Assembly (NCBI GenBank): GCA_934365155.1
Contig: CAKRMZ010000002.1
Location: 36,645 to 100,644, forward strand
Length of the DNA stretch: 64,000 nucleotides
Source: an uncultured Eubacteriales bacterium
Lineage (GTDB): Bacteria > Bacillota > Clostridia > Oscillospirales > CAG-272
Direction: 5' to 3'
The position numbers and the translations under genes are program-made. The notes under the pieces are model-generated. The model saw only the letters and a list, made by a program, of their open reading frames with translations, was not told the origin of the DNA and did no database searches. Shown here in pieces: positions 3,301 to 64,000 of this stretch; positions within the stretch are counted from its first letter, which is position 1; the number at the start of each line of letters is the position of its first letter.

Positions 3301-5043
3301 ATGATAAAACGGCTTTTCGGTTGTGTTCGAGAATATAAAAGAGCAACGGTTCTGACATTGATATTTATTGTTCTCGAAGCGGTGATTGAAACGTTCATAC
3401 CGTTCATAACCTCGGATCTTGTCAACCGGATCGAGGGCGGGACTACCGTCGGTGTGATTGTAAAAATCGGATTGGTTTTATTTGCAATGGCGATTTTGTC
3501 GCTTTCCTGCGGCGGAATTGCAGGCTTTACCTGTGCCAGGGCTTCGGCCGGATTTGCTAAAAATCTGCGCCACGACATGTTTGAAAGAATACAGAGATAT
3601 TCTTTTGAGAATATTGATAAATTCTCTTCCTCATCCTTGGTTACGCGAATGACAACAGATGTCAGCAACGTGCAAATGGCATTTATGATGATCATACGCA
3701 CGGCGATTCGTGCGCCGCTGATGCTGATTTTTTCAATTGTGATGGCCTATATTTTAGGCGGAGCTTTGGCGACCTCTTTTGTTGTTATTATTCCGCTGTT
3801 GGTCTTCGGCCTTATCATGATTGCCAGAAAAGCGATGCCCGCTTTTCGGCGAGTGTTTAAAAAATATGACCGTTTGAACGAATCCATCGAGGAGAACGTT
3901 CGTGGGATGCGCGTGGTGAAGGGATTCTCCCGCGAGGAGCACGAAAAAGAAAAATTCGGCGCGGCGGCAGAAGATATCCGCAAGGACTTTACCCGTGCGG
4001 AACGCATTGTGGCGCTGAATATGCCTTTGATGCAGTGCTGCCTTTATTTTAATATGATTTTTGTGCTTTTGGTCGGTTCCCGCTTGATTATAACCAGCGG
4101 TGCGCAAACCATCAATGTCGGCGAAATGTCAGCGATGCTGACCTACGGTGTGCAGATTTTGATGCAGCTGATGATGATTTCCATGATTTATGTGATGCTC
4201 ACCATGTCCGGCGAATCGATGAAACGAATTGATGAGGTGCTTACCGAAATACCGGCTTTGCAAAATCCTCAAGCGGCTGTGACGGAAGTTCCGGACGGTT
4301 CGATCGATTTTAACGGGGTTTCCTTTAAGTATTCGGAAAAAGCTGCCAAATACGCTTTGGAAGGGATTGATTTACATATCCGTTCCGGCATGACGGTCGG
4401 TATTTTGGGCGGAACCGGATCCAGCAAATCCACATTGGTTCAGTTGATTCCGCGTTTATATGATGTCACCGAGGGAAGCGTTTGCGTGGGACATACCGAT
4501 GTCCGCGATTATGATATTGAAGCGTTGCGTTGCGCGGTGGCGATGGTCTTGCAGAAAAACTTGCTCTTTTCGGGAACCATTAAAGAAAATCTGCGTTGGG
4601 GTAATGAAAACGCGACGGATGAAGAAATTATAGAAGCCTGTCGTTTGGCGCAGGCAGATGAGTTTGTCCGTTCATTCCCCGACGGTTACGATACCAAAAT
4701 CGAACAGGGCGGCACCAATGTTTCCGGAGGGCAGAAGCAACGGCTTTGTATTGCTCGTGCATTGCTGAAAAAACCGAAAATTTTGATTTTGGATGACTCG
4801 ACCAGCGCCGTTGATACCAAAACCGACCTGCTGATTCGAAAGGGATTTCGTGAATATATTCCGGAAACGACCAAAATTATTATTGCCCAACGAGTGGCGT
4901 CGGTTGAAGATGCCGATCTGATTTTGGTGATGGATAACGGGCGTATTGTTGACAAGGGTACTCACGCGGGGCTTCTTGATCGCTGCGAAATCTATCGTGA
5001 AATCTATTTCCAGCAGACGAAGAAAGCGGGGGATGAGAAATGA
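3301..5043 (+). CDS. ABC exporter, fused permease/ATPase subunit (heterodimeric multidrug-type)
   Basis: An N-terminal six-helix TMD is followed by an NBD with Walker A GGTGSSKST, signature VSGGQKQR and Walker B ILILDDSTSAVD. Confidence 0.9.
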   Translation: MIKRLFGCVREYKRATVLTLIFIVLEAVIETFIPFITSDLVNRIEGGTTVGVIVKIGLVLFAMAILSLSCGGIAGFTCARASAGFAKNLRHDMFERIQRYSFENIDKFSSSSLVTRMTTDVSNVQMAFMMIIRTAIRAPLMLIFSIVMAYILGGALATSFVVIIPLLVFGLIMIARKAMPAFRRVFKKYDRLNESIEENVRGMRVVKGFSREEHEKEKFGAAAEDIRKDFTRAERIVALNMPLMQCCLYFNMIFVLLVGSRLIITSGAQTINVGEMSAMLTYGVQILMQLMMISMIYVMLTMSGESMKRIDEVLTEIPALQNPQAAVTEVPDGSIDFNGVSFKYSEKAAKYALEGIDLHIRSGMTVGILGGTGSSKSTLVQLIPRLYDVTEGSVCVGHTDVRDYDIEALRCAVAMVLQKNLLFSGTIKENLRWGNENATDEEIIEACRLAQADEFVRSFPDGYDTKIEQGGTNVSGGQKQRLCIARALLKKPKILILDDSTSAVDTKTDLLIRKGFREYIPETTKIIIAQRVASVEDADLILVMDNGRIVDKGTHAGLLDRCEIYREIYFQQTKKAGDEK

Positions 5044-25832: not shown

Positions 25833-25874
25833 GAAAGTAGATTTTAATTTTAGATCCGAACAGTTGAATAAGCA

Positions 25875-25948
25875 TGGTTTTCTGTGACTGACGGAATGCG
25901 GAGTACCGCAAGGGAGCAGAAAATTGGTTTCGCCGACCGTCTGGGCAG
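25875..25948 (+). promoter_or_regulatory. ZTP (pfl-motif) riboswitch aptamer
   Basis: P1 is UUUUCU/AGAAAA. The aptamer contains GUGACUGaCGgAA, a P2 hairpin GCGG-AGUA-CCGC, GGGAGC, a linker, then CCGACCGUCUGGGCA. These correspond to the conserved GUGACUGGCG...GGGAGC...CCGnCCGCCUGGGCA blocks of the pfl motif. Confidence 0.8.
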
Positions 25949-25991
25949 TCATCCGTATGTAAAAGTAGGGGATGGTCTGCCCTATTTTATT
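25943..25991 (+). terminator. Riboswitch expression-platform terminator
   Basis: GGGCAGTCATCC pairs with GGATGG(T)CTGCCC across a 15-nt loop, followed by TATTTTATTAT. The 5' arm overlaps the aptamer's CUGGGCA element. Confidence 0.7.
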
Positions 25992-56483: not shown

Positions 56484-56557
56484 TGGAGCGGGCAACGGGA
56501 GTCGAACCCGCCTAATCAGCTTGGGAAGCTGAAATTCTACCGATGAACTATGCCCGC
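56484..56557 (-). tRNA. tRNA-Gly (anticodon CCC), CCA encoded
   Basis: The reverse complement GCGGGCATAGTTCATCGGTAGAATTTCAGCTTCCCAAGCTGATTAGGCGGGTTCGACTCCCGTTGCCCGCTCCA folds by hand into a 74-nt cloverleaf. It has a 7-bp acceptor stem, a TTCGA T-loop and the anticodon loop TT-CCC-AA. Confidence 0.9.
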
Positions 56558-56692: not shown

Positions 56693-56721
56693 TTGTCAAA
56701 ACAGATAAAAAATGGTATAAT
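56693..56721 (+). promoter_or_regulatory. Promoter of the riboswitch-led surface-protein operon
   Basis: TTGTCA, 17 nt (ending in TGg), then TATAAT. Confidence 0.6.
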
Positions 56722-56745
56722 ACCTCTAATTGAATAGTTACGAGA

Positions 56746-56929
56746 AGATACGGTTTGAAAAGTTGTAAGCTGAGTAGATGAAAAGGAAATCCGGTTCGAA
56801 TCCGGAACAACCGCCATTACTGTATTTGACGAGATAAAAAACACAAAAAAGCACTGCGGTCAGTCTGTCCGTGTAAAATGTTTTTGTGAACGATCCGTTG
56901 TATCATAAGTCAGGATACCTGCCGTATCT
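56746..56929 (+). promoter_or_regulatory. Cobalamin (B12) riboswitch aptamer, somewhat divergent core
   Basis: P1 is AGATACGG (56746-53) / CCGTATCT (56922-29). The core AAAAGGAAAUCCGGUUCGAAUCCGGAACAACCGCCAUUACUGUA follows the pattern AGGGAA..GGUG.GAAUCC...CCGCCACUGUA. The 3' B12 box AAGUCAGGAUACCUGCC resembles E. coli btuB ...GAAGACCUGCC. Confidence 0.8.
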
Positions 56930-56960
56930 TTTAGGTTTAACACAGCTTTGGTGAGAAGAG

Positions 56961-57014
56961 TGCAACCGTTTTATTGCCGCACGTCGGCGTCGGGTTTGCA
57001 TTCTTTTTTGTTTT
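56961..57014 (+). terminator. Riboswitch expression-platform terminator
   Basis: TGCAACCG...GCCG-cacgt-CGGC...CGGGTTTGCA followed by TTCTTTTTTGTTTT. Confidence 0.65.
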
Positions 57015-57112
57015 AGATTCCCGATGTTTTCGTGCCGTAATAAAAGGGTGATAGGTTCTTTTGAGAGAAACCGAAGTGAGAAAATTTTCTATTCGGTAAG
57101 GAGGGATATGTA

Positions 57113-57295
57113 TTGACATCAGACGAAAAGATATTCTGGGCGGAAGAGCTTTTGCGTCAAAAATACAGTCAATTAGGCAGACTGCCCCGAAAAAATGATT
57201 TCGATGATGCGACTTGTTCCCGAATCAAGGCTTTTCTCGGTCCGTGGCCAAGGGCATTGGAAGCTGCCGGAATAAAAGAAGCCAAAAAAAGATGA
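57113..57295 (+). CDS. 60-aa protein resembling a single homing-endonuclease-associated (HEARO/HNH_repeat-like) helical repeat
   Basis: Strong RBS TAAGGAGGG 9 nt before TTG 57113. The sequence LGRLPRKNDFDDATCSRIKAFLGPWPRALEAAGI follows the pattern G+xPxxxxF.......I...FGxWxxALxxAG. Confidence 0.55.
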   Translation: MTSDEKIFWAEELLRQKYSQLGRLPRKNDFDDATCSRIKAFLGPWPRALEAAGIKEAKKR

Positions 57296-57449: not shown

Positions 57450-60400
57450 ATGAAAATAAGATGGAAACAAATATTGGCCGGGTTCCTTACATTCATGATG
57501 ATAATATCGGTCATTCCGTTGACGGTATCGGCAACCGAAACGGAGCGGACAATTACGACATATGAAGAATTAAAGCAATTTGCAGAAGAGGTAAACCGCG
57601 GCAACACATTTGAGGGAACAACCGTTATTCTTGCCGCAAATATAGCACTCGGCGGGGAGAGCAACCCGTGGACGGCAATCGGAACAGCTTCGGCACCGTT
57701 TAAGGGGACCTTTGACGGCGGATACCATGTGATCAGTGAACTTTCTGTTTCCTCCGGCTCGTGCGTCGGGTTCTTCGGCAACGTCAACGGAGGAACAGTT
57801 AAGAATTTAGTGATAAGAGGCAGTGTCAGCGGTTCATCCGAAGTGGGGGGGATCGTTGGCAGCCTGACAAACGGAAAGGTGATAAACTGCGGTAACGAGG
57901 CGGATGTATCCGGCGGACGAGGAGTCGGCGGCGTGGTTGGCTCGGTAAACAATGACTGCATCATCAGCGGCTGTTATAATACCGGAACGGTCCGTGCAAC
58001 AACCGGCTATATCGGAGGAGTTACCGGCGAACACTGGAAAACCGGTACTTTGGAAAACTGCTATAATGTCGGCGCGGTATCGGGACCGGCAACGGTCGGC
58101 GGCGTGGCCGGAGGACATCAGGCTGCAAATCCCGTGCTTACCAATTGCTATAATGCGGGAAAGGTAACAATTTCGGAAGGCGGCAGCGGAACCAGAGTCG
58201 GTGCGGTGCTCGGTGGAAACCGGGGAGGAACGAACACAAACTGCTACTATCTTGCCGGAACGGGATCAAATGAAAAAGACGGCATTACCGAGGTGAGCGC
58301 TATTGAGGCATCCAAACTCGGAGATGCATTTCAAGCAGGGGAAGACGGAGTGCGTACCGCCGTACTTGTATGGGAAAGCATGATTTGCAAGGATGCTCCC
58401 GTTCGTCCTGCTTTCATAGAGCGTACGGCGCTTTCCGCACAGCTTGCCGGATATATTAAAGAGGCAATCAACAGCAAAAAGACAAAGGCCGGGGTCGGCA
58501 ACGGAAGCTTGCTCGGAAGTAAGGCTTATTTGTCCGGTGCAAGCTCTACGGACACAGACTGGATGGCGCTTGCTATGGGGCGCTTCGGTTATTTTGATGC
58601 GGAAGGGTACCACTATCTTGCGGATGATGGAACCGGTTATGCGGATTATCTTGCCGCAATGAAAGCATACATTGAAAAAACATATCAGGAAAACAACGGC
58701 ATTTTGCACCGGGTGAAAGCGACGGAATGGCACAGAGCGGTTGTGGCGATTGCCGCACTCGGCGGAGATCCGACCGCATTCGGTGTTTATAAGGGTTCCG
58801 CAATTGATCTGATTGCAGACGGCAGCTATAACAGCCCATTGCAATCCGGCCCCGGCACACAGGGAATTAACGGTTGGATTTGGGGACTGATTGCAATGGA
58901 CACGGGAATGTATGACGTTCCGGCGGAAGTCAAGTATTCCCGGGATACCTTTATTAAAGAAATCCTGAAAATGCAGCTTACAGACGGTGTGAACGGCAAT
59001 GAATACGGCGGATTTGTGCTCGGCGGTTTTGGTTCAAAATCCGATGTAGATATAACGGCTATGGCGATTCAGGCACTGGCGCCGTATTATACCGATGATA
59101 CTGTTTATACCTATATAAATGAAAATTCCAAAAAGGAAGTCACCAAAACCGTGCGTCAATGTGTGGATGAGGCTCTTGACTGTCTTGGTTTGATGCAAAA
59201 CGCAAACGGCGGATTTTCCTCTTGGAATACCGAAAATGCAGAGAGTATTGCGCAGGTTATCGTTGCGCTGTGCTCGGTCGGAATGGATCCGGCAAAGGAT
59301 GAGCGCTTTATCAAAAACGGCAAAACGCTTCTTGACGCGATGCTCCGTTTCCGGCTTTCGGACGGTGGATTTTGCCATGTCGTGGGCGACGGCGGAAATT
59401 CCATGGCTACGGATCAGGCGACATATGCGCTTGTTTCCTATTGGCGGTACGAAAACGAAATGCGATCCCTTTACGATATGCGTGCGGTCCAAAGCCAATC
59501 CGATCAGTTGCTGATCAAAGAGGCGATTGCCGCAATTTACGCAGCCGAAGATCCTGCTGACGCAAGCTTCAAAGCACAACTGAAAACAGCTCTTGCCGCT
59601 TTTCGTGCCGTACCGAAGAATGAACGGCGTTATGTCAGAAATTATGCTACGCTTGCTTCGATGATTGACATGATCGGCGGTGAGGCGGCGCTGGATACCG
59701 ATACGCCGTACGTTGTTTCGATTGAGGTGACCAAACAACCGGATAAAGTCAGTTATTATGAGGGAGAGCACTTTGATCCTGCCGGTATGATTGTGACCGC
59801 GCGGTACAGCGACAGCAGCACAAAAGTTCTGACCGATTATAAGCTGTCGGAAAATGCAGGACTTGCACTTTCTGTCGATACGGTTTATGTAGTCTACGGT
59901 ACGCTGAAAGCTCCTGTTTCGGTTTCCGTGCGGGAAAAGTTACCTTGGGACGGAGAGGGAACGAAAGATTCACCGTATCTTATCAAAACAGCAGAGGATT
60001 TAAATGCACTGGCTCAATATGTCAATTCCGGCAAGAGCACGACCGGTCAATATTTTTTGGTGACGGCGAACATAGACCTCAGCGACTGTGAAAAATGGAC
60101 GCCGATCGGACAGAGAAGCAGCAGACAGTTTGACGGCATTTTTGACGGACAGGGTTATGCAATTGACAATTTGTATGCTGTAAGCGGAGGATTGTTCGGC
60201 TATGCCGGAACCAACGCCGTAATCCGGAATGTCGGTGTTGCAAGCGGAGAAATTAATGCTGCCAACCGTACCTTTATCGGAGGGATTGTCGGATGGAGTA
60301 ACGGAGCCGACATTATTAACTGTTGGAACGGAGCGAATATCCTTTGCAGCGGCTATAGCGGAGGTATTGTCGGCACAGTGCGCGACGGCGGAAAGAGTAC

Positions 60401-61601
60401 AGTGAAGGGTTGCTATAATATCGGTACGATAACAGCTTCCGACACAAGAGTCGGCGGTATTGTCGGTCACCTTGGCTCAACCAACAGCGAAAAAACCAAT
60501 GAAGTTTTAATCCTTGATTGCTATAATGTCGGTACTATTACCGCTGCTGACGTTGCCGGAGGTATTGTCGGACAGGCGCAGAACGGACATGTTATTCAAA
60601 ATTGTTATAACGTCGGTACAATCAGTGTAAACGGTGTCAATATTCTCAGCGGCGCGGGCAGCATTGTCAGCGCTACGACACGGAATAACCAGATTATTAA
60701 TTGCTATTATAATTCCGAGATTAATTCTGTCGGCATTTCAAACGGTACGCAGACCGCAACCGGAAAAACAACGGCAGGAATGAAAGAAGACGCATTTTTA
60801 GCGCTTCTCGGTGAAGGATTTAAAAAAGACAGTTATGCCATTGTAAATAACGGATACCCGCTTGCCGTATGGCAGAAAACCGAGGAGGCAGATGCCGTGG
60901 ATGCCGTGATTGCGATGATTGATGCGATCGAAGAGGTAACTCTCGAACGTGCACCGGAAATCGTCGCGGCAAGAAGTGCTTATGATGGCCTTGACAGTAC
61001 GTTAAAACCTTATGTTTCGAATCTTTCTGCATTAGAGGAAGCGGAACAGACGCTTGCGGCAATGCAAGCCTTAGAGCAAGCCAAAAATGAGGCGCTTTGG
61101 CAGCTTGAAAACTATAAGGATCCGTCGGAATATCGTAAGGATCAGCAAAACGAGCTTGCCGATATCATTTCCGATTGTTGTACCTCCATTTCCGAGGCGA
61201 CGGATATAGACGCCGTAGCTGCCGCACTCGCATCGGCAAAAGCAAAGCTCGACAGTATTCCGACAAATCGGGAGCTTACAGATCGGGAGGCGGCAAAAGC
61301 GGTTTCCGATCAAATCGATGCGATCGGAGAGATTGGTCTTGATAAAGAAGCTGCGATCCGCACCGCACGTGCTGCGTATGATGCACTGACCGATACGGCA
61401 AAAGCATTCGTCGGTAATATCGATGTGCTTGAGAATGCGGAGAAAGCGCTTGCAGTTTTGAAAGAATCGGAAAGCAAAGGGAACGATAACGGTTCTTCTC
61501 CGACGACCGGAGACCGTGACGCTGTTCTGCCGTGCCTGTTAATGCTGATAAGCCTCGGCGGTGTTATCATTACAAGAAAAAATAAGAAAACCGGTATTTG
61601 A
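57450..61601 (+). CDS. Cell-wall-anchored (SPxTG) mosaic surface protein: signal peptide, GLUG array 1, alpha/alpha-toroid (prenyltransferase/transcobalamin-alpha-like) domain, Big_3-like Ig domain, GLUG array 2, helical repeats
   Basis: GGAAGGAG RBS before ATG 57450. Signal peptide MKIRWKQILAGFLTFMMIISVIPLTVSA. Repeated (V/I)GG(I/V)(V/A/T)G GLUG-type motifs occupy 57.55-58.38 kb and 59.95-60.83 kb. Toroid repeat motifs are WMALAMGRFGY, QGINGWIWGLIAMD, DITAMAIQALAPYY, NGGFSSW and SDGGFCHV. The sorting signal is SPTTG (61497-61511), then a TM and RKNKKTGI. Confidence 0.85.
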   Translation: MKIRWKQILAGFLTFMMIISVIPLTVSATETERTITTYEELKQFAEEVNRGNTFEGTTVILAANIALGGESNPWTAIGTASAPFKGTFDGGYHVISELSVSSGSCVGFFGNVNGGTVKNLVIRGSVSGSSEVGGIVGSLTNGKVINCGNEADVSGGRGVGGVVGSVNNDCIISGCYNTGTVRATTGYIGGVTGEHWKTGTLENCYNVGAVSGPATVGGVAGGHQAANPVLTNCYNAGKVTISEGGSGTRVGAVLGGNRGGTNTNCYYLAGTGSNEKDGITEVSAIEASKLGDAFQAGEDGVRTAVLVWESMICKDAPVRPAFIERTALSAQLAGYIKEAINSKKTKAGVGNGSLLGSKAYLSGASSTDTDWMALAMGRFGYFDAEGYHYLADDGTGYADYLAAMKAYIEKTYQENNGILHRVKATEWHRAVVAIAALGGDPTAFGVYKGSAIDLIADGSYNSPLQSGPGTQGINGWIWGLIAMDTGMYDVPAEVKYSRDTFIKEILKMQLTDGVNGNEYGGFVLGGFGSKSDVDITAMAIQALAPYYTDDTVYTYINENSKKEVTKTVRQCVDEALDCLGLMQNANGGFSSWNTENAESIAQVIVALCSVGMDPAKDERFIKNGKTLLDAMLRFRLSDGGFCHVVGDGGNSMATDQATYALVSYWRYENEMRSLYDMRAVQSQSDQLLIKEAIAAIYAAEDPADASFKAQLKTALAAFRAVPKNERRYVRNYATLASMIDMIGGEAALDTDTPYVVSIEVTKQPDKVSYYEGEHFDPAGMIVTARYSDSSTKVLTDYKLSENAGLALSVDTVYVVYGTLKAPVSVSVREKLPWDGEGTKDSPYLIKTAEDLNALAQYVNSGKSTTGQYFLVTANIDLSDCEKWTPIGQRSSRQFDGIFDGQGYAIDNLYAVSGGLFGYAGTNAVIRNVGVASGEINAANRTFIGGIVGWSNGADIINCWNGANILCSGYSGGIVGTVRDGGKSTVKGCYNIGTITASDTRVGGIVGHLGSTNSEKTNEVLILDCYNVGTITAADVAGGIVGQAQNGHVIQNCYNVGTISVNGVNILSGAGSIVSATTRNNQIINCYYNSEINSVGISNGTQTATGKTTAGMKEDAFLALLGEGFKKDSYAIVNNGYPLAVWQKTEEADAVDAVIAMIDAIEEVTLERAPEIVAARSAYDGLDSTLKPYVSNLSALEEAEQTLAAMQALEQAKNEALWQLENYKDPSEYRKDQQNELADIISDCCTSISEATDIDAVAAALASAKAKLDSIPTNRELTDREAAKAVSDQIDAIGEIGLDKEAAIRTARAAYDALTDTAKAFVGNIDVLENAEKALAVLKESESKGNDNGSSPTTGDRDAVLPCLLMLISLGGVIITRKNKKTGI

Positions 61602-61610
61602 AAGGAATGA

Positions 61611-61634
61611 GCATGCGGCAAAAATGCCGCATGC
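61611..61634 (+). repeat. Perfect 10-bp stem / 4-nt loop intercistronic hairpin
   Basis: GCATGCGGCA-aaaa-TGCCGCATGC, lying between the stop at 61601 and the RBS at 61651. No U-tract follows. Confidence 0.7.
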
Positions 61635-61666
61635 CCCTTTCCCACTTGAACGGAGGAATTTATAAG

Positions 61667-63193
61667 ATGAACATCAAAAAGCGGATGACCGCTTTTGTGT
61701 GTATGTGTTTAATACTGATTCTGTCTGTTTTGGCTGCCTTATCGGTCACTGCGGCGACCGGCCCGACACTCAGCACGACATTGACGGATCATCTTGTTCA
61801 GCGCGGCAGCAAAAAGACGTTTGATGTTTGGGCGCGGAATGCCTCCGGCAATAAGATTAAGGCGGTTGTTAAGCTGAACGGACAAAAGCTTGAACCGACA
61901 TGGGATGATAACGAAAAAACCAGCTATACGCTGATATTTACCAAAGAGGGTGAAAATATTGTCAGTGTTTCCGCATCATCTGACGGCGGAAAGAAAAAAG
62001 AATTAAGCTATCATATCACCTATTGTAAAGCGAATGATGGCGATGTAATCGGCACGGCTGTATGGAGCGTTGAAACCTTCAGCCTCGGCTGCGGCTATTT
62101 GATTTACCCCTTGGAGGTTCCGATATATGAGGGAGAAAACGCGGCCGAACAGCTGATTCGTTTGCTCCATGAAAACGGCTTTGTCGGTTATTATGGTGGC
62201 GATGTGAAGAAATCTTTTTATCTTGCCTATATTGCAGACGGTACGGCATGCGGAGAAAGGTACAATACATATCGGAAAAGCGGCGTTCCGAATGCGCCGC
62301 GGCAATTGAATCTTTTTCCGTCTGTTCCTTCGCTCCTCATCCCATACCTGCGGGATACCATGACTTTTTTCGACCCGGAGGATTATACAAAAAACTGGAC
62401 CGGATATCTCGGTGAGTTTGCAATAACGAATGGTTCCGGATGGATGTACTGTGTGAACAACGTTTTTCCCAATGTCGGATTTGCAGACTGTTATCTTTCC
62501 GACGGAGATGTGGTCCGTGTGCAGTTTACTCTGGGATACGGGGCGGATATTGGCGGTGGCAGCGCAATGGGGAATTCGGGAAGTGTGATGTCCGGTTCCT
62601 ATTATTTAACAGCGAATAAAGATGTGCTGACAAAAGCAATCAGTTCTGCACGTGCTTCGGGATTTCTTAGCCGCAGCAATGTAAAAGCGGCCTATGATAA
62701 TGCTTTAAAGGCGGCAGCTACGTTGGATGCTGCCCAGGATAAAATTGATGCCGCGGCAAATGCACTGCAAAATGCGCTTGCTTCTCCGTCTCCGGATAAA
62801 ACGGAGGACGAAGATAACAGCGGCAACACGGAGTATATTCCGAGAGAAACCGACAGAATTCCCGATACGGCGGACGGTGCCCATCGTGAAACCGATGCGA
62901 GCGCCTCTGCCGACGATCCAAAACTTACATCTACCCCGGAAAATACAAACACATCGGATTCATTCGCGATCTCCGATCGGGGAACCGTTACGGGTATCGA
63001 CAAAATAGATACCGCAAGCGGGCAAACGAAAACGGATACCCTTTCGGGGAAATCTTTTAGCACAGCGGCCGTGATCGGGGTATCGGTGATTATTTGTATT
63101 GTTGCGCTGATAGCGGTAGGGCTGATTATTCGGATACGGAAAAAGGAAAAGAACAGCACCCATGTTGACCGGGGAGGGAAATCGGACGGATGA
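61667..63193 (+). CDS. Secreted, C-terminally membrane-anchored protein with Ig-like N-domain and DUF4430 (transcobalamin/intrinsic-factor beta-domain-like) domain
   Basis: CGGAGGAA RBS. Signal peptide MNIKKRMTAFVCMCLILILSVLAALSVTAA. The DUF4430-type segment runs from GTAVWSVETFSLGCGYLIYP to GEFAITNGSGWMYCVNNVFPNVGFADCYLSDGDVVRVQFT (~62050-62545). A low-complexity acidic linker is followed by the C-terminal TM AAVIGVSVIICIVALIAVGLII and RIRKKEK. Confidence 0.8.
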   Translation: MNIKKRMTAFVCMCLILILSVLAALSVTAATGPTLSTTLTDHLVQRGSKKTFDVWARNASGNKIKAVVKLNGQKLEPTWDDNEKTSYTLIFTKEGENIVSVSASSDGGKKKELSYHITYCKANDGDVIGTAVWSVETFSLGCGYLIYPLEVPIYEGENAAEQLIRLLHENGFVGYYGGDVKKSFYLAYIADGTACGERYNTYRKSGVPNAPRQLNLFPSVPSLLIPYLRDTMTFFDPEDYTKNWTGYLGEFAITNGSGWMYCVNNVFPNVGFADCYLSDGDVVRVQFTLGYGADIGGGSAMGNSGSVMSGSYYLTANKDVLTKAISSARASGFLSRSNVKAAYDNALKAAATLDAAQDKIDAAANALQNALASPSPDKTEDEDNSGNTEYIPRETDRIPDTADGAHRETDASASADDPKLTSTPENTNTSDSFAISDRGTVTGIDKIDTASGQTKTDTLSGKSFSTAAVIGVSVIICIVALIAVGLIIRIRKKEKNSTHVDRGGKSDG

Positions 63194-64000
63194 ATAAAAG
63201 AATTGTCGGTGCGGCACTATGTATCTGCTTGTTGCTATCTTTGTTTTGTATATTTTCGAATGCGGCAAGCGCGTCCGACACAGCGCTGTCGGTAGCAAAA
63301 GAAATTATTGCATGGAAAAAGGCGGATAACGGTGCGGCCCCGGAGGATGATCTTATCAATGAAAAGTATCTTGCATTGGCCGGCACGACTCCGGGAGATT
63401 GGTATCCGATCGCGCTCGGCAGGCTTGGTATCACCGACAACAATGCAGGATATCTTTCCGTTATCAAGGATCAAATTGAAAAGCGTTACCGGAGTCCCGG
63501 CAAGCTCAGCGCCGCCAAGGCCACGGAGTGGCACCGTATTGCGTTGGCAGTTTTGTCAATGGGCGGCGATCCGACGCAATTCGGTTCGGATGAAAACGGG
63601 AATCCGATCAATCTGATTGCGGACGGCACCTACAACCGCGGGAGGACGGCATCGCTCGGCAGGCAGGGAATCAACGGCTGGATATGGGGCTTGATTGCTC
63701 TTGACAGCCTGCGATACGAAGTGCCGGTAGATGCTTACTATACGCGGGATGACATTATAATCGAGATTTTGAGGCAGCAGCTTTCGTCCGGAGGGTTTGC
63801 ACTCAGCGGCAAAACGGCGGATCCGGATATTACGGCGATGGCGATCCAAGCGCTGGCTCCGTATTATAACAGCGAAAAGACATATACGTATACACAAAAG
63901 GAATCGGGACGGGAGCTTAGCCAAAATGTTCATACGGTTATTGAGGAAGCTTTGTCATGCCTTTCCCTTTTGCAGCTTGACACCGGCGATTTTGAGAGCT
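63190..64000 (+). CDS. Secreted alpha/alpha-toroid protein, paralogue of the central domain of the 57450 gene (partial, runs off window)
   Basis: This ORF is not in the supplied ORF track because it has no stop inside the window. I hand-translated it from ATG 63190, which forms an ATGA overlap with the upstream stop: MNKRIVGAALCICLLLSLFCIFSNAASA...KATEWHRIALAVLSMGGDPTQFG...QGINGWIWGLIALDSLRYEVP...DPDITAMAIQALAPYYNS... Confidence 0.8.
   Translation, partial: MNKRIVGAALCICLLLSLFCIFSNAASASDTALSVAKEIIAWKKADNGAAPEDDLINEKYLALAGTTPGDWYPIALGRLGITDNNAGYLSVIKDQIEKRYRSPGKLSAAKATEWHRIALAVLSMGGDPTQFGSDENGNPINLIADGTYNRGRTASLGRQGINGWIWGLIALDSLRYEVPVDAYYTRDDIIIEILRQQLSSGGFALSGKTADPDITAMAIQALAPYYNSEKTYTYTQKESGRELSQNVHTVIEEALSCLSLLQLDTGDFES

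Follow-up and report, generated by a model that had tools for sequence, protein, structure and literature searches.

A cobalamin riboswitch of gut Clostridia whose kissing-loop hairpin shares a strand with its terminator: a possible ON switch ahead of putative corrinoid-capture genes

The stretch analysed here (the window) comprises 64,000 nucleotides (nt) of an uncultured Eubacteriales bacterium (contig CAKRMZ010000002.1, positions 36,645 to 100,644). It carries a corrinoid (cobalamin) riboswitch followed by a predicted intrinsic terminator (T1) and an operon of at least four genes, which this class-I-like riboswitch would govern through transcription attenuation at T1. We tentatively propose that it is an ON switch, in which binding of a corrinoid would prevent termination. 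The proposal is based on the anatomy of the leader, where a weak hairpin directly behind the aptamer (P13) shares one of its strands with T1 and displays in its loop (L13) the complement of an aptamer loop (L5). The leader consists of the following elements:

56693-56721, plus strand: near-consensus sigma-70-type promoter (TTGTCA and TATAAT at a spacing of 17 nt, the -10 hexamer being preceded by TG; 11 of 12 matches)
56734-56940, plus strand: corrinoid (cobalamin) riboswitch aptamer, class-I-like, with P2 arm and long P6 extension (RF00174)
56742-56754, plus strand: P1 5' strand GAGAAGAUACGGU, pairing with 56921-56933 (covariance-model alignment)
56787-56789, plus strand: J3/4 AAA (consensus GAA; A56787 is a lineage-specific G to A change)
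56795-56801, plus strand: L4 loop UUCGAAU of the T-loop type, the 'GGUU' variant (covariance-model alignment)
56811-56816, plus strand: L5 loop CCGCCA, of which CGCCA (56812-56816) is the proposed kissing-loop strand
56823-56906, plus strand: P6 extension of 84 nt, with GCACUG kept (56851-56856) and UGUAAAAUG (56872-56880) replacing the GGGAAGG-type module
56907-56923, plus strand: B12 box AAGUCAGGAUACCUGCC, including J6/3 AUA (56915-56917) and the P3 3' strand CCU
56921-56933, plus strand: P1 3' strand GCCGUAUCUUUUA (covariance-model alignment)
56934-56967, plus strand: P13 hairpin (GGUU/AACC, CAC/GUG, CUUU/GAAG, apical loop GGUGA), the proposed ligand-stabilised antiterminator
56953-57014, plus strand: predicted intrinsic terminator T1, with outer stem GAGAAGAGUGCAACC pairing with GG-UUUGCAUUCUUUU, nested hairpin 56975-56989 and U tract 57001-57014
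56965-57050, plus strand: H3, a long hairpin of the read-through transcript (56965-56994 pairs with 57020-57050)

The RF00174 Cobalamin covariance model matches the aptamer over its full length (model positions 1-189) with 63.4 bits against a gathering score of 31.5, at an E-value of 2.5e-13 (2.1e-15 if the local stretch alone is searched). It is a genuine corrinoid riboswitch, a member of the known family and routine as an aptamer. The first-pass annotation of this DNA, made from the letters, had named a cobalamin riboswitch with a terminator-type expression platform, and both parts are borne out by the RF00174 match and by T1 with its U tract. The closing helix which it gave (AGAUACGG/CCGUAUCU) is contained in P1, and its 3' B12 box is present at the listed place. 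The whole leader (56693-57112) is 100% identical across three independent metagenome assemblies, so its variants are fixed in the species and are not sequencing errors.

With the class I riboswitches of RF00174 (Cbl-I; T. tengcongensis, E. coli btuB) the aptamer shares the P1-P6 junction core, the T-loop in L4, the B12 box and an L5 loop available for kissing, as well as a P2 arm and a long P6 extension. Every helix of the four-way junction core (P3, J3/4, the P4 T-loop, P5/L5, P6, J6/3 and the B12 box) aligns, the J6/3 adenines A56915 and A56917 are retained, and J3/4 has one substitution (G to A). Two deviations described earlier are indeed seen: GGAAA instead of GGGAA, where the changed base is the first J3/4 nucleotide (A56787), and GGUU instead of GGUG, in L4. 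The 2-nt insertion proposed for CCGCC-AU-UACUGUA was rejected, since the covariance model aligns this stretch column for column and free of gaps. In addition, P5 consists of AA/UU, two A-U pairs replacing the u-a and G-C of the model (uG/Ca), and L5 reads CCGCCA where the model has CCCCCG. The largest departure from the model had been overlooked and concerns the P6 extension, where the alignment uses a local end to pass over 30 model positions (gCCACUGg...cCGGGAAGGc). The GCCACUG...GGGAAGG module is only half recognisable: GCACUG and an A-rich internal loop, UGUAAAAUG, remain, the latter in place of the GAGAAGG of the relatives discussed below, which keep CCAUUGG...GAGAAGG.

Behind the aptamer, the two-tier terminator hairpin reported earlier folds with -21.7 kcal/mol (z -3.16; 1 of 200 shuffled sequences was as good) and is directly followed by the long U tract UUCUUUUUUGUUUU. 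A simple terminator scan did not list T1 because its loop limit was 8 nt and T1 holds a nested hairpin. The 3' strand of P13 (56955-56967; GAAG.GUG.AACC) sits within the 5' strand of T1 (56953-56968), so the two hairpins are mutually exclusive. The minimum-free-energy fold of the transcript ending at 56970 contains P1 and P13, that of the transcript to 57014 contains P1 and T1. We looked in the window for a stronger antiterminator and found none; the best alternative, in which the P1 3' strand would pair with the 5' strand of T1, has a helix of -2.8 kcal/mol and reaches -6.7 kcal/mol at best, and it was rejected as too weak for a main switch. Also rejected was the idea that T1 itself acts as P13 with the L5 complement inside it, as its conserved internal loop AUUUAUC is not complementary to L5.

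Once T1 is passed, another structure becomes available. H3 folds with -37.6 kcal/mol (z -6.0; none of 200 shuffled sequences was as good) and was first noticed via a chance microRNA alignment. It absorbs the inner part and the top of the T1 3' arm, and its loop contains that arm together with the U tract. H3 can only form after the U tract has been transcribed, that is, after the termination decision. An analogous pairing is seen in relatives.

The connection between aptamer and terminator is proposed to run through a kissing loop. L13 UGGUG (56949-56953; loop plus closing U) is complementary to L5 CGCCA, with a duplex energy of -7.0 kcal/mol in the window. The kissing bases that function in P. 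megaterium metE are CCG, the three nucleotides at the end of L5, together with CGG in L13 (PMC10653944). By model position, L5 has changed from CCG to CCA and L13 from CGG to UGG, which constitutes a matched double change relative to metE and a further difference from class I. These complementary sequences suggest that an L5-L13 kissing loop links the aptamer to the expression platform in the window.

Related leaders were collected from three sources: the 1383-amino-acid protein encoded downstream served as query and gave three genome loci, alignment of the small first open reading frame (ORF) gave 80 metagenome loci, and a further 15 loci came from looking up exact matches to small-protein homologs. 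After removal of near-duplicates about 18 lineages were left for comparison. The relatives are metagenome-assembled genomes of Clostridia, Ruminococcaceae and Lachnospiraceae, and one homolog is named Faecalibacterium. The same leader design is found in all of these lineages, and directly after P1 they have (A/U)GGUU-N3-CAY-..CUUUGGUGAGAAGAGUGCA(A/G)CCG in common. A promoter similar to that of the window (TTGCAA...TGGTATAAT) lies at the equivalent place in lineage L003.

L5 is invariant wherever it is present, in the 18 lineages and also across the 83 and 15 loci. L13 reads UUUGGUG in 14 lineages, UUUGGCG in 2 and UUGGGCG in 2; each variant keeps at least 4 base pairs with CGCC(A), with duplex energies from -7.0 to -8.9 kcal/mol, the latter for UUUGGCG, a perfect 5-bp complement of L5. 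In the alignment of 18 sequences 97% of the P13 cells are paired, against 42-51% when the partners are slid, and the changes of CAC to CAU, UAC or CGC in several lineages all preserve pairing with GUG. For T1, 91% of the cells are paired and 2 pairs have changed on both sides. The sequence of its nested hairpin is not conserved, and here the strands covary (GCCGC/GCGGC, GCUGC/GCAGC). In the lineages for which the whole hairpin was captured T1 has -19 to -26 kcal/mol (-20 to -27 kcal/mol in a separate computation), against -3 to -7.5 kcal/mol for P13, which is weaker than T1 also in 11 lineages. The T1 U tract is kept in most lineages (weak in L012, L003 and L010).

Most relatives contain a second terminator. 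T2 (AAUCUGUUGUACUCUUUU...AAAGAGUAUUUUUU) is a strong terminator just before the ribosome-binding site of the small ORF and occurs in 16 of the 18 lineages (L001, L003-L012, L087-L097; for example at about 1120-1185 in L087). It is absent from the window and from L002, and no second terminator precedes the ORF in the window. Both keep L5, L13 and T1. The 5' strand of T2 is complementary to the 5' strand of T1, a pairing that is used in the minimum-free-energy folds of several full leaders.

Some further observations concern these platforms. The window keeps a remnant of T2, GGUUCUUUUGAGAG, at about 57055-57068. Within the species of the L012 cluster, represented by 52 distinct human-gut sequences, most polymorphism falls on two positions in the 3' arm of T1 beside a bulge (CGGUGCAC, CGGGGCAC, CGUUGCAC, CGAUGCAC); together with the lack of a good U tract this suggests a relaxed constraint on T1 where T2 terminates. 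Three lineages (L003 at 3960-4020, L005, and L010 at 2733-2830) have a GC-rich hairpin of 60-100 nt inserted between P1 and P13, which recalls the P8-P9 linker hairpin of B. subtilis yvrC.

The genes behind the leader are the following:

57098-57295, plus strand: ribosome-binding site AAGGAGGG and a 60-amino-acid HNH_repeat ORF (TTG 57113 to TGA 57295), the first regulated gene (PF18780, E 3.8e-10)
57450-61601, plus strand: gene 2, a surface protein of 1383 amino acids that has a signal peptide, GLUG repeats, an alpha/alpha-toroid-like domain at its centre and a membrane anchor at its C terminus
61598-63193, plus strand: gene 3, a DUF4430 protein of 531 amino acids (PF14478, 30 bits; cut-off 23.8) that begins with an immunoglobulin-like domain and has a membrane anchor at its C terminus
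63190-64000, plus strand: fourth gene, running off the window, a secreted paralog of the gene-2 toroid-like domain (45% identity over 256 amino acids, E 1e-61)

A stand-alone HNH_repeat (PF18780) protein of 60-100 amino acids is the first gene behind the leader in every lineage but L002 (for instance at 176-466 in L001, at 4203-4424 in L003, and in L084-L098). The orthologs of the small ORF are 70-84% identical and hold the same position in the relatives. In total 2536 homologs of this protein were found at E <= 1e-3, the top 120 being 69-100% identical. The genes that come after it vary by lineage and encode either GLUG/toroid/dockerin surface proteins or an ECF transporter; the latter is preceded by the same leader and small ORF in L098. 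Relatives of the 1383-amino-acid protein carry a dockerin in place of the membrane anchor.

DUF4430 is a domain of the C-terminal region of transcobalamin (PMC4350170). An AlphaFold2 model of this domain in gene 3 (predicted local distance difference test, pLDDT, 82) was compared with the PDB using Foldseek, and the best matches were only transcobalamin, the isolated beta domain (template-modelling score, TM, 0.62 on the target), intrinsic factor and haptocorrin, with probabilities of 0.84-0.99 and weak E-values (0.014-0.18). These matches come from the isolated domain only, as the search with the whole gene-3 model is dominated by the immunoglobulin-like domain. At the sequence level neither the DUF4430 protein nor the toroid region has a significant match among the PDB sequences. 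The toroid-like domain of genes 2 and 4 matches Prenyltrans weakly. Judging from these models, the products of genes 2-4 look like a transcobalamin-like corrinoid binder that a Gram-positive gut bacterium has in split form, anchored to its surface. The likeness to transcobalamin, intrinsic factor and haptocorrin lies in the DUF4430 fold of gene 3 and the alpha/alpha-toroid-like domain of genes 2 and 4; the difference is that in the window these two domains are on separate bacterial surface-anchored proteins, whose corrinoid binding is putative. A literature search returned co-mentions of DUF4430 and cobalamin that are not about bacterial corrinoid binders, and nothing that combined 'transcobalamin-like' with 'riboswitch'.

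For the sign of regulation two published designs are relevant. The riboswitch of A. halodurans cobT is the only known activating corrinoid riboswitch; its P13 and terminator are mutually exclusive, and P13, stabilised by the kissing loop, is the antiterminator (PMC10653944). Procknow et al. 2023 (mBio) showed by mutations that it activates expression (PMC10653944). Its P13, UGAGG[CAUGGCAUAC]CCUCA, is short and overlaps the terminator (sequence from Table S1, PMC10653944), for which we computed a fold of -13.2 kcal/mol. In the repressing design, represented by P. megaterium metE, P13 and terminator coexist, and in the ligand-free state the 3' side of P13 forms an antiterminator with the terminator's 5' side (PMC10653944). 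Our literature search turned up no natural activating corrinoid riboswitch besides that of A. halodurans cobT.

The window resembles cobT in that a weak P13 presents the complement of L5, L13 contains UGG, and a stronger intrinsic terminator has the 3' strand of P13 as its own 5' strand. It differs in a P13 of three short helices, in a two-tier T1 with about 25 nt inside, and in its cargo of putative corrinoid-binding surface proteins instead of cobT. Moreover, most of its relatives have a second terminator, the aptamers are not close in sequence, and for the window activation is a prediction. With metE and yvrC it shares a kissing-loop-dependent P13 and transcription termination as read-out (both predicted in the window), and with yvrC also the AUA of J6/3. 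Unlike metE, the only U-tract terminator of the window overlaps P13 and does not lie downstream of it, and a comparable separate antiterminator is lacking.

The window has the cobT design, in which a hairpin with a kissing loop is weak, the terminator that forms by default is strong, and the two have a strand in common. We therefore consider ON more likely than OFF, and an ON switch is our first, if still tentative, choice. The OFF control stated in the first-pass annotation is not supported by the anatomy, as P13 shares its strand with the terminator in the manner of the published activating design (PMC10653944). In the absence of ligand, the 3' arm of T1 would displace P13 once it has been made, and transcription would stop at the U tract. 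When a corrinoid is bound, P13 would be locked by the kissing of L5 with L13 and T1 could not form, so that RNA polymerase would read through into the genes; H3 would then take up the T1 3' arm. In the relatives with T2, the T1 5' strand freed in this way would pair with the T2 5' strand, and both terminators would be passed. Without ligand T1 would terminate, and transcripts leaking through would leave T2 free to form. T2 would hence act as a fail-safe that fires only where T1 had formed.

Several observations weigh against an ON switch. Corrinoid capture and uptake genes are classically repressed by B12, and the modelled cargo looks like such functions. The sign of regulation is itself inferred by analogy with one characterised riboswitch. 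Comparative support for P13 is one-sided, as none of its pairs has changed on both sides among the 18 sequences, and shuffled sequences fold just as well as P13 by itself (-5.1 to -6.5 kcal/mol; z +0.16). Variation in L5 that would reveal true L5-L13 covariation was sought in the 83 scan loci and 15 look-up loci, and none was found; the kissing loop is without true covariation because L5 never varies. Furthermore, UGGUG of L13 directly adjoins the 5' strand of T1, so that stacking of the kissing helix on T1 could favour the terminator instead. Finally, nearly all corrinoid riboswitches tested so far repress (PMC10653944), and in the 16 lineages with T2 the 5' strand of T2 is able to pair with the 3' strand of P13, which fits the repressing layout of P. 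megaterium metE; this likeness is found in the relatives and not in the window.

These points feed the strongest alternative, a classical OFF switch in which corrinoid would promote T1 (and T2 in the relatives) and so shut down a capture or uptake operon. We regard it as a serious but rather doubtful possibility. Either the ligand-free RNA would use P13 as its default antiterminator, or the kissing helix would stack on the T1 5' strand and nucleate T1; as L13 runs straight into that strand, AGAAGAGUGC, coaxial stacking is geometrically conceivable. Energetically, an antiterminator that has only -5 to -6.7 kcal/mol and no assistance is no match for T1 at -21.7 kcal/mol, so the ligand-free RNA should terminate. 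Besides, the sole hairpin whose loop carries an L5 complement has its 3' strand in common with T1, and known structures and genetics indicate that ligand stabilises the L5-L13/P13 unit. In the window, moreover, T2 is missing. Our main reason to rank ON above OFF, an argument from design, is that an OFF switch operating on T2 would leave the conserved T1 and its U tract without a role, while T1 would terminate the ligand-free transcript and kill expression.

Taking the lineages together, it is quite possible, though we hold this with reserve, that the leader belongs to a widespread, naturally activating family in gut Clostridia. In such a family P13, locked by the kissing loop, would antiterminate T1, most members would apply a double check by a cascade of T1, H3, pairing between the T1 and T2 5' strands, and T2, and a corrinoid would switch on the HNH_repeat protein along with transcobalamin-like binders or an ECF transporter. 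The inducing corrinoid would perhaps be an incomplete or non-preferred one.

RF00174 scores of the sister lineages range from 45 to 103 bits, which places the window mid-range. Common to the lineages are GGUU in L4, A-U pairs in P5, L5 CCGCCA, AGUCAGGAUACC and AGUCAG(G/A)A.ACC, and L012 bears these traits at a score of 103.2 bits. The first J3/4 nucleotide, on the other hand, is G in all aptamer-bearing lineages scored, save the window (A) and L002 (U). The 'non-canonical core' of the first-pass annotation is thus mostly the lineage signature of a normal riboswitch family, because GGUU, the A-U P5, L5 and AGUCAGGAUACC are common to the sisters including the 103-bit member; the J3/4 change and the altered P6-extension module are what remains specific to the lineage. 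That GGUU marks a variant class was rejected on the same grounds, the trait being family-wide and yielding a tRNA-like T-loop. UUCGA is the classical T-loop sequence of tRNA. The L4 position is treated as a T-loop in the B. subtilis riboswitch paper (PMC7367189).

An altered corrinoid selectivity (for cobinamide, or for another upper or lower ligand) is compatible with ON as well as OFF, and we consider it unlikely. The first-pass annotation had linked the deviations of the core to variant classes with altered selectivity, for which its arguments mostly fail, being family-wide traits and an insertion that does not exist; the two lineage-specific changes might still tune selectivity, because in solved structures they adjoin the adenosyl pocket. 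In yvrC, G44 forms a non-Watson-Crick pair with the J6/3 adenine A106, which stacks on the adenosyl group beside it (PMC7367189). Counting from L4, which begins at U52 after a P4 of 5 bp, A56787 appears to correspond to this G44. In class I structures the conserved P6-extension adenines stack on the J6/3 adenines and open and buttress the adenosyl pocket (PMC7367189), and by this analogy both A56787 and the altered module would border the upper-ligand pocket. It also fits that the only known activating riboswitch prefers cobinamide (PMC10653944), and that two aptamer types occur within the family, GGGAAUC...CAGGAUACC with the P6 module and GGGAAAUC...CAGAAAACC without it. Nevertheless, the J6/3 adenines and the A-rich internal loop are kept in the window, most of the deviations that had been flagged recur in the 103-bit member, and corrinoid selectivity cannot be read from sequence (PMC7367189).

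The module-free type comprises L090, L091, L093 and L095, in which J3/4 reads GGGAAAUC, the B12 box has CAGAA(A/C)ACC and the P6 extension is short; they score 45-49 bits with RF00174. This subtype is a possible selectivity variant inside the same operon family. In the leader of L002 (9395-9745) cmscan reports no RF00174 match even at E <= 0.1; its core has changed (AAGAUAAUCC, CAGAAUACC), L5, L13 and T1 are kept, and the small ORF and T2 are lacking. This leader has either decayed or been re-specified.

That the window's riboswitch is decaying as well, with T2 lost, J3/4 and the P6 module hit, no ligand response and T1 left as a constitutive partial attenuator, is improbable: the window and the strongly diverged L002 are indeed alone in lacking both T2 and the J3/4 G, and the model skips the window's P6-extension module, but its aptamer still scores in the middle of the family range, P1, the T-loop, L5, L13, P13, the B12 box, the J6/3 adenines and the downstream ORFs are intact, L5 and L13 are kept even in L002, and a large operon with intact genes would stay silent if the aptamer were dead and the terminator behind it formed strongly by default.

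If the ON reading is true, the number of natural corrinoid riboswitches known to activate would rise from one to two, and this one would be the first to be placed before capture or uptake genes. Induction instead of repression of a capture system by corrinoids would alter models of the competition for B12 in the gut. Should the proposed wiring hold, an abundant and conserved riboswitch family in gut bacteria would show ON control by B12-type cofactors to be a regular strategy, and its leaders would offer natural parts for corrinoid biosensors. The cargo would then point to a surface system of gut Firmicutes for capturing corrinoids that is as yet undescribed, consisting of the DUF4430 protein resembling the transcobalamin beta domain, the toroid-domain surface or dockerin proteins, the ECF transporter (in one relative) and the HNH_repeat protein of 60-100 amino acids.

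Two other RNA elements were observed in the window. A tRNA-Gly gene (anticodon CCC) lies at 56484-56557 on the minus strand, divergent from the riboswitch promoter and with a promoter-like site of its own at 56603-56575. A ZMP/ZTP riboswitch (RF01750; 64.8 bits, gathering score 39) is found at 25874-25953 on the plus strand, upstream of a series of plus-strand ORFs.

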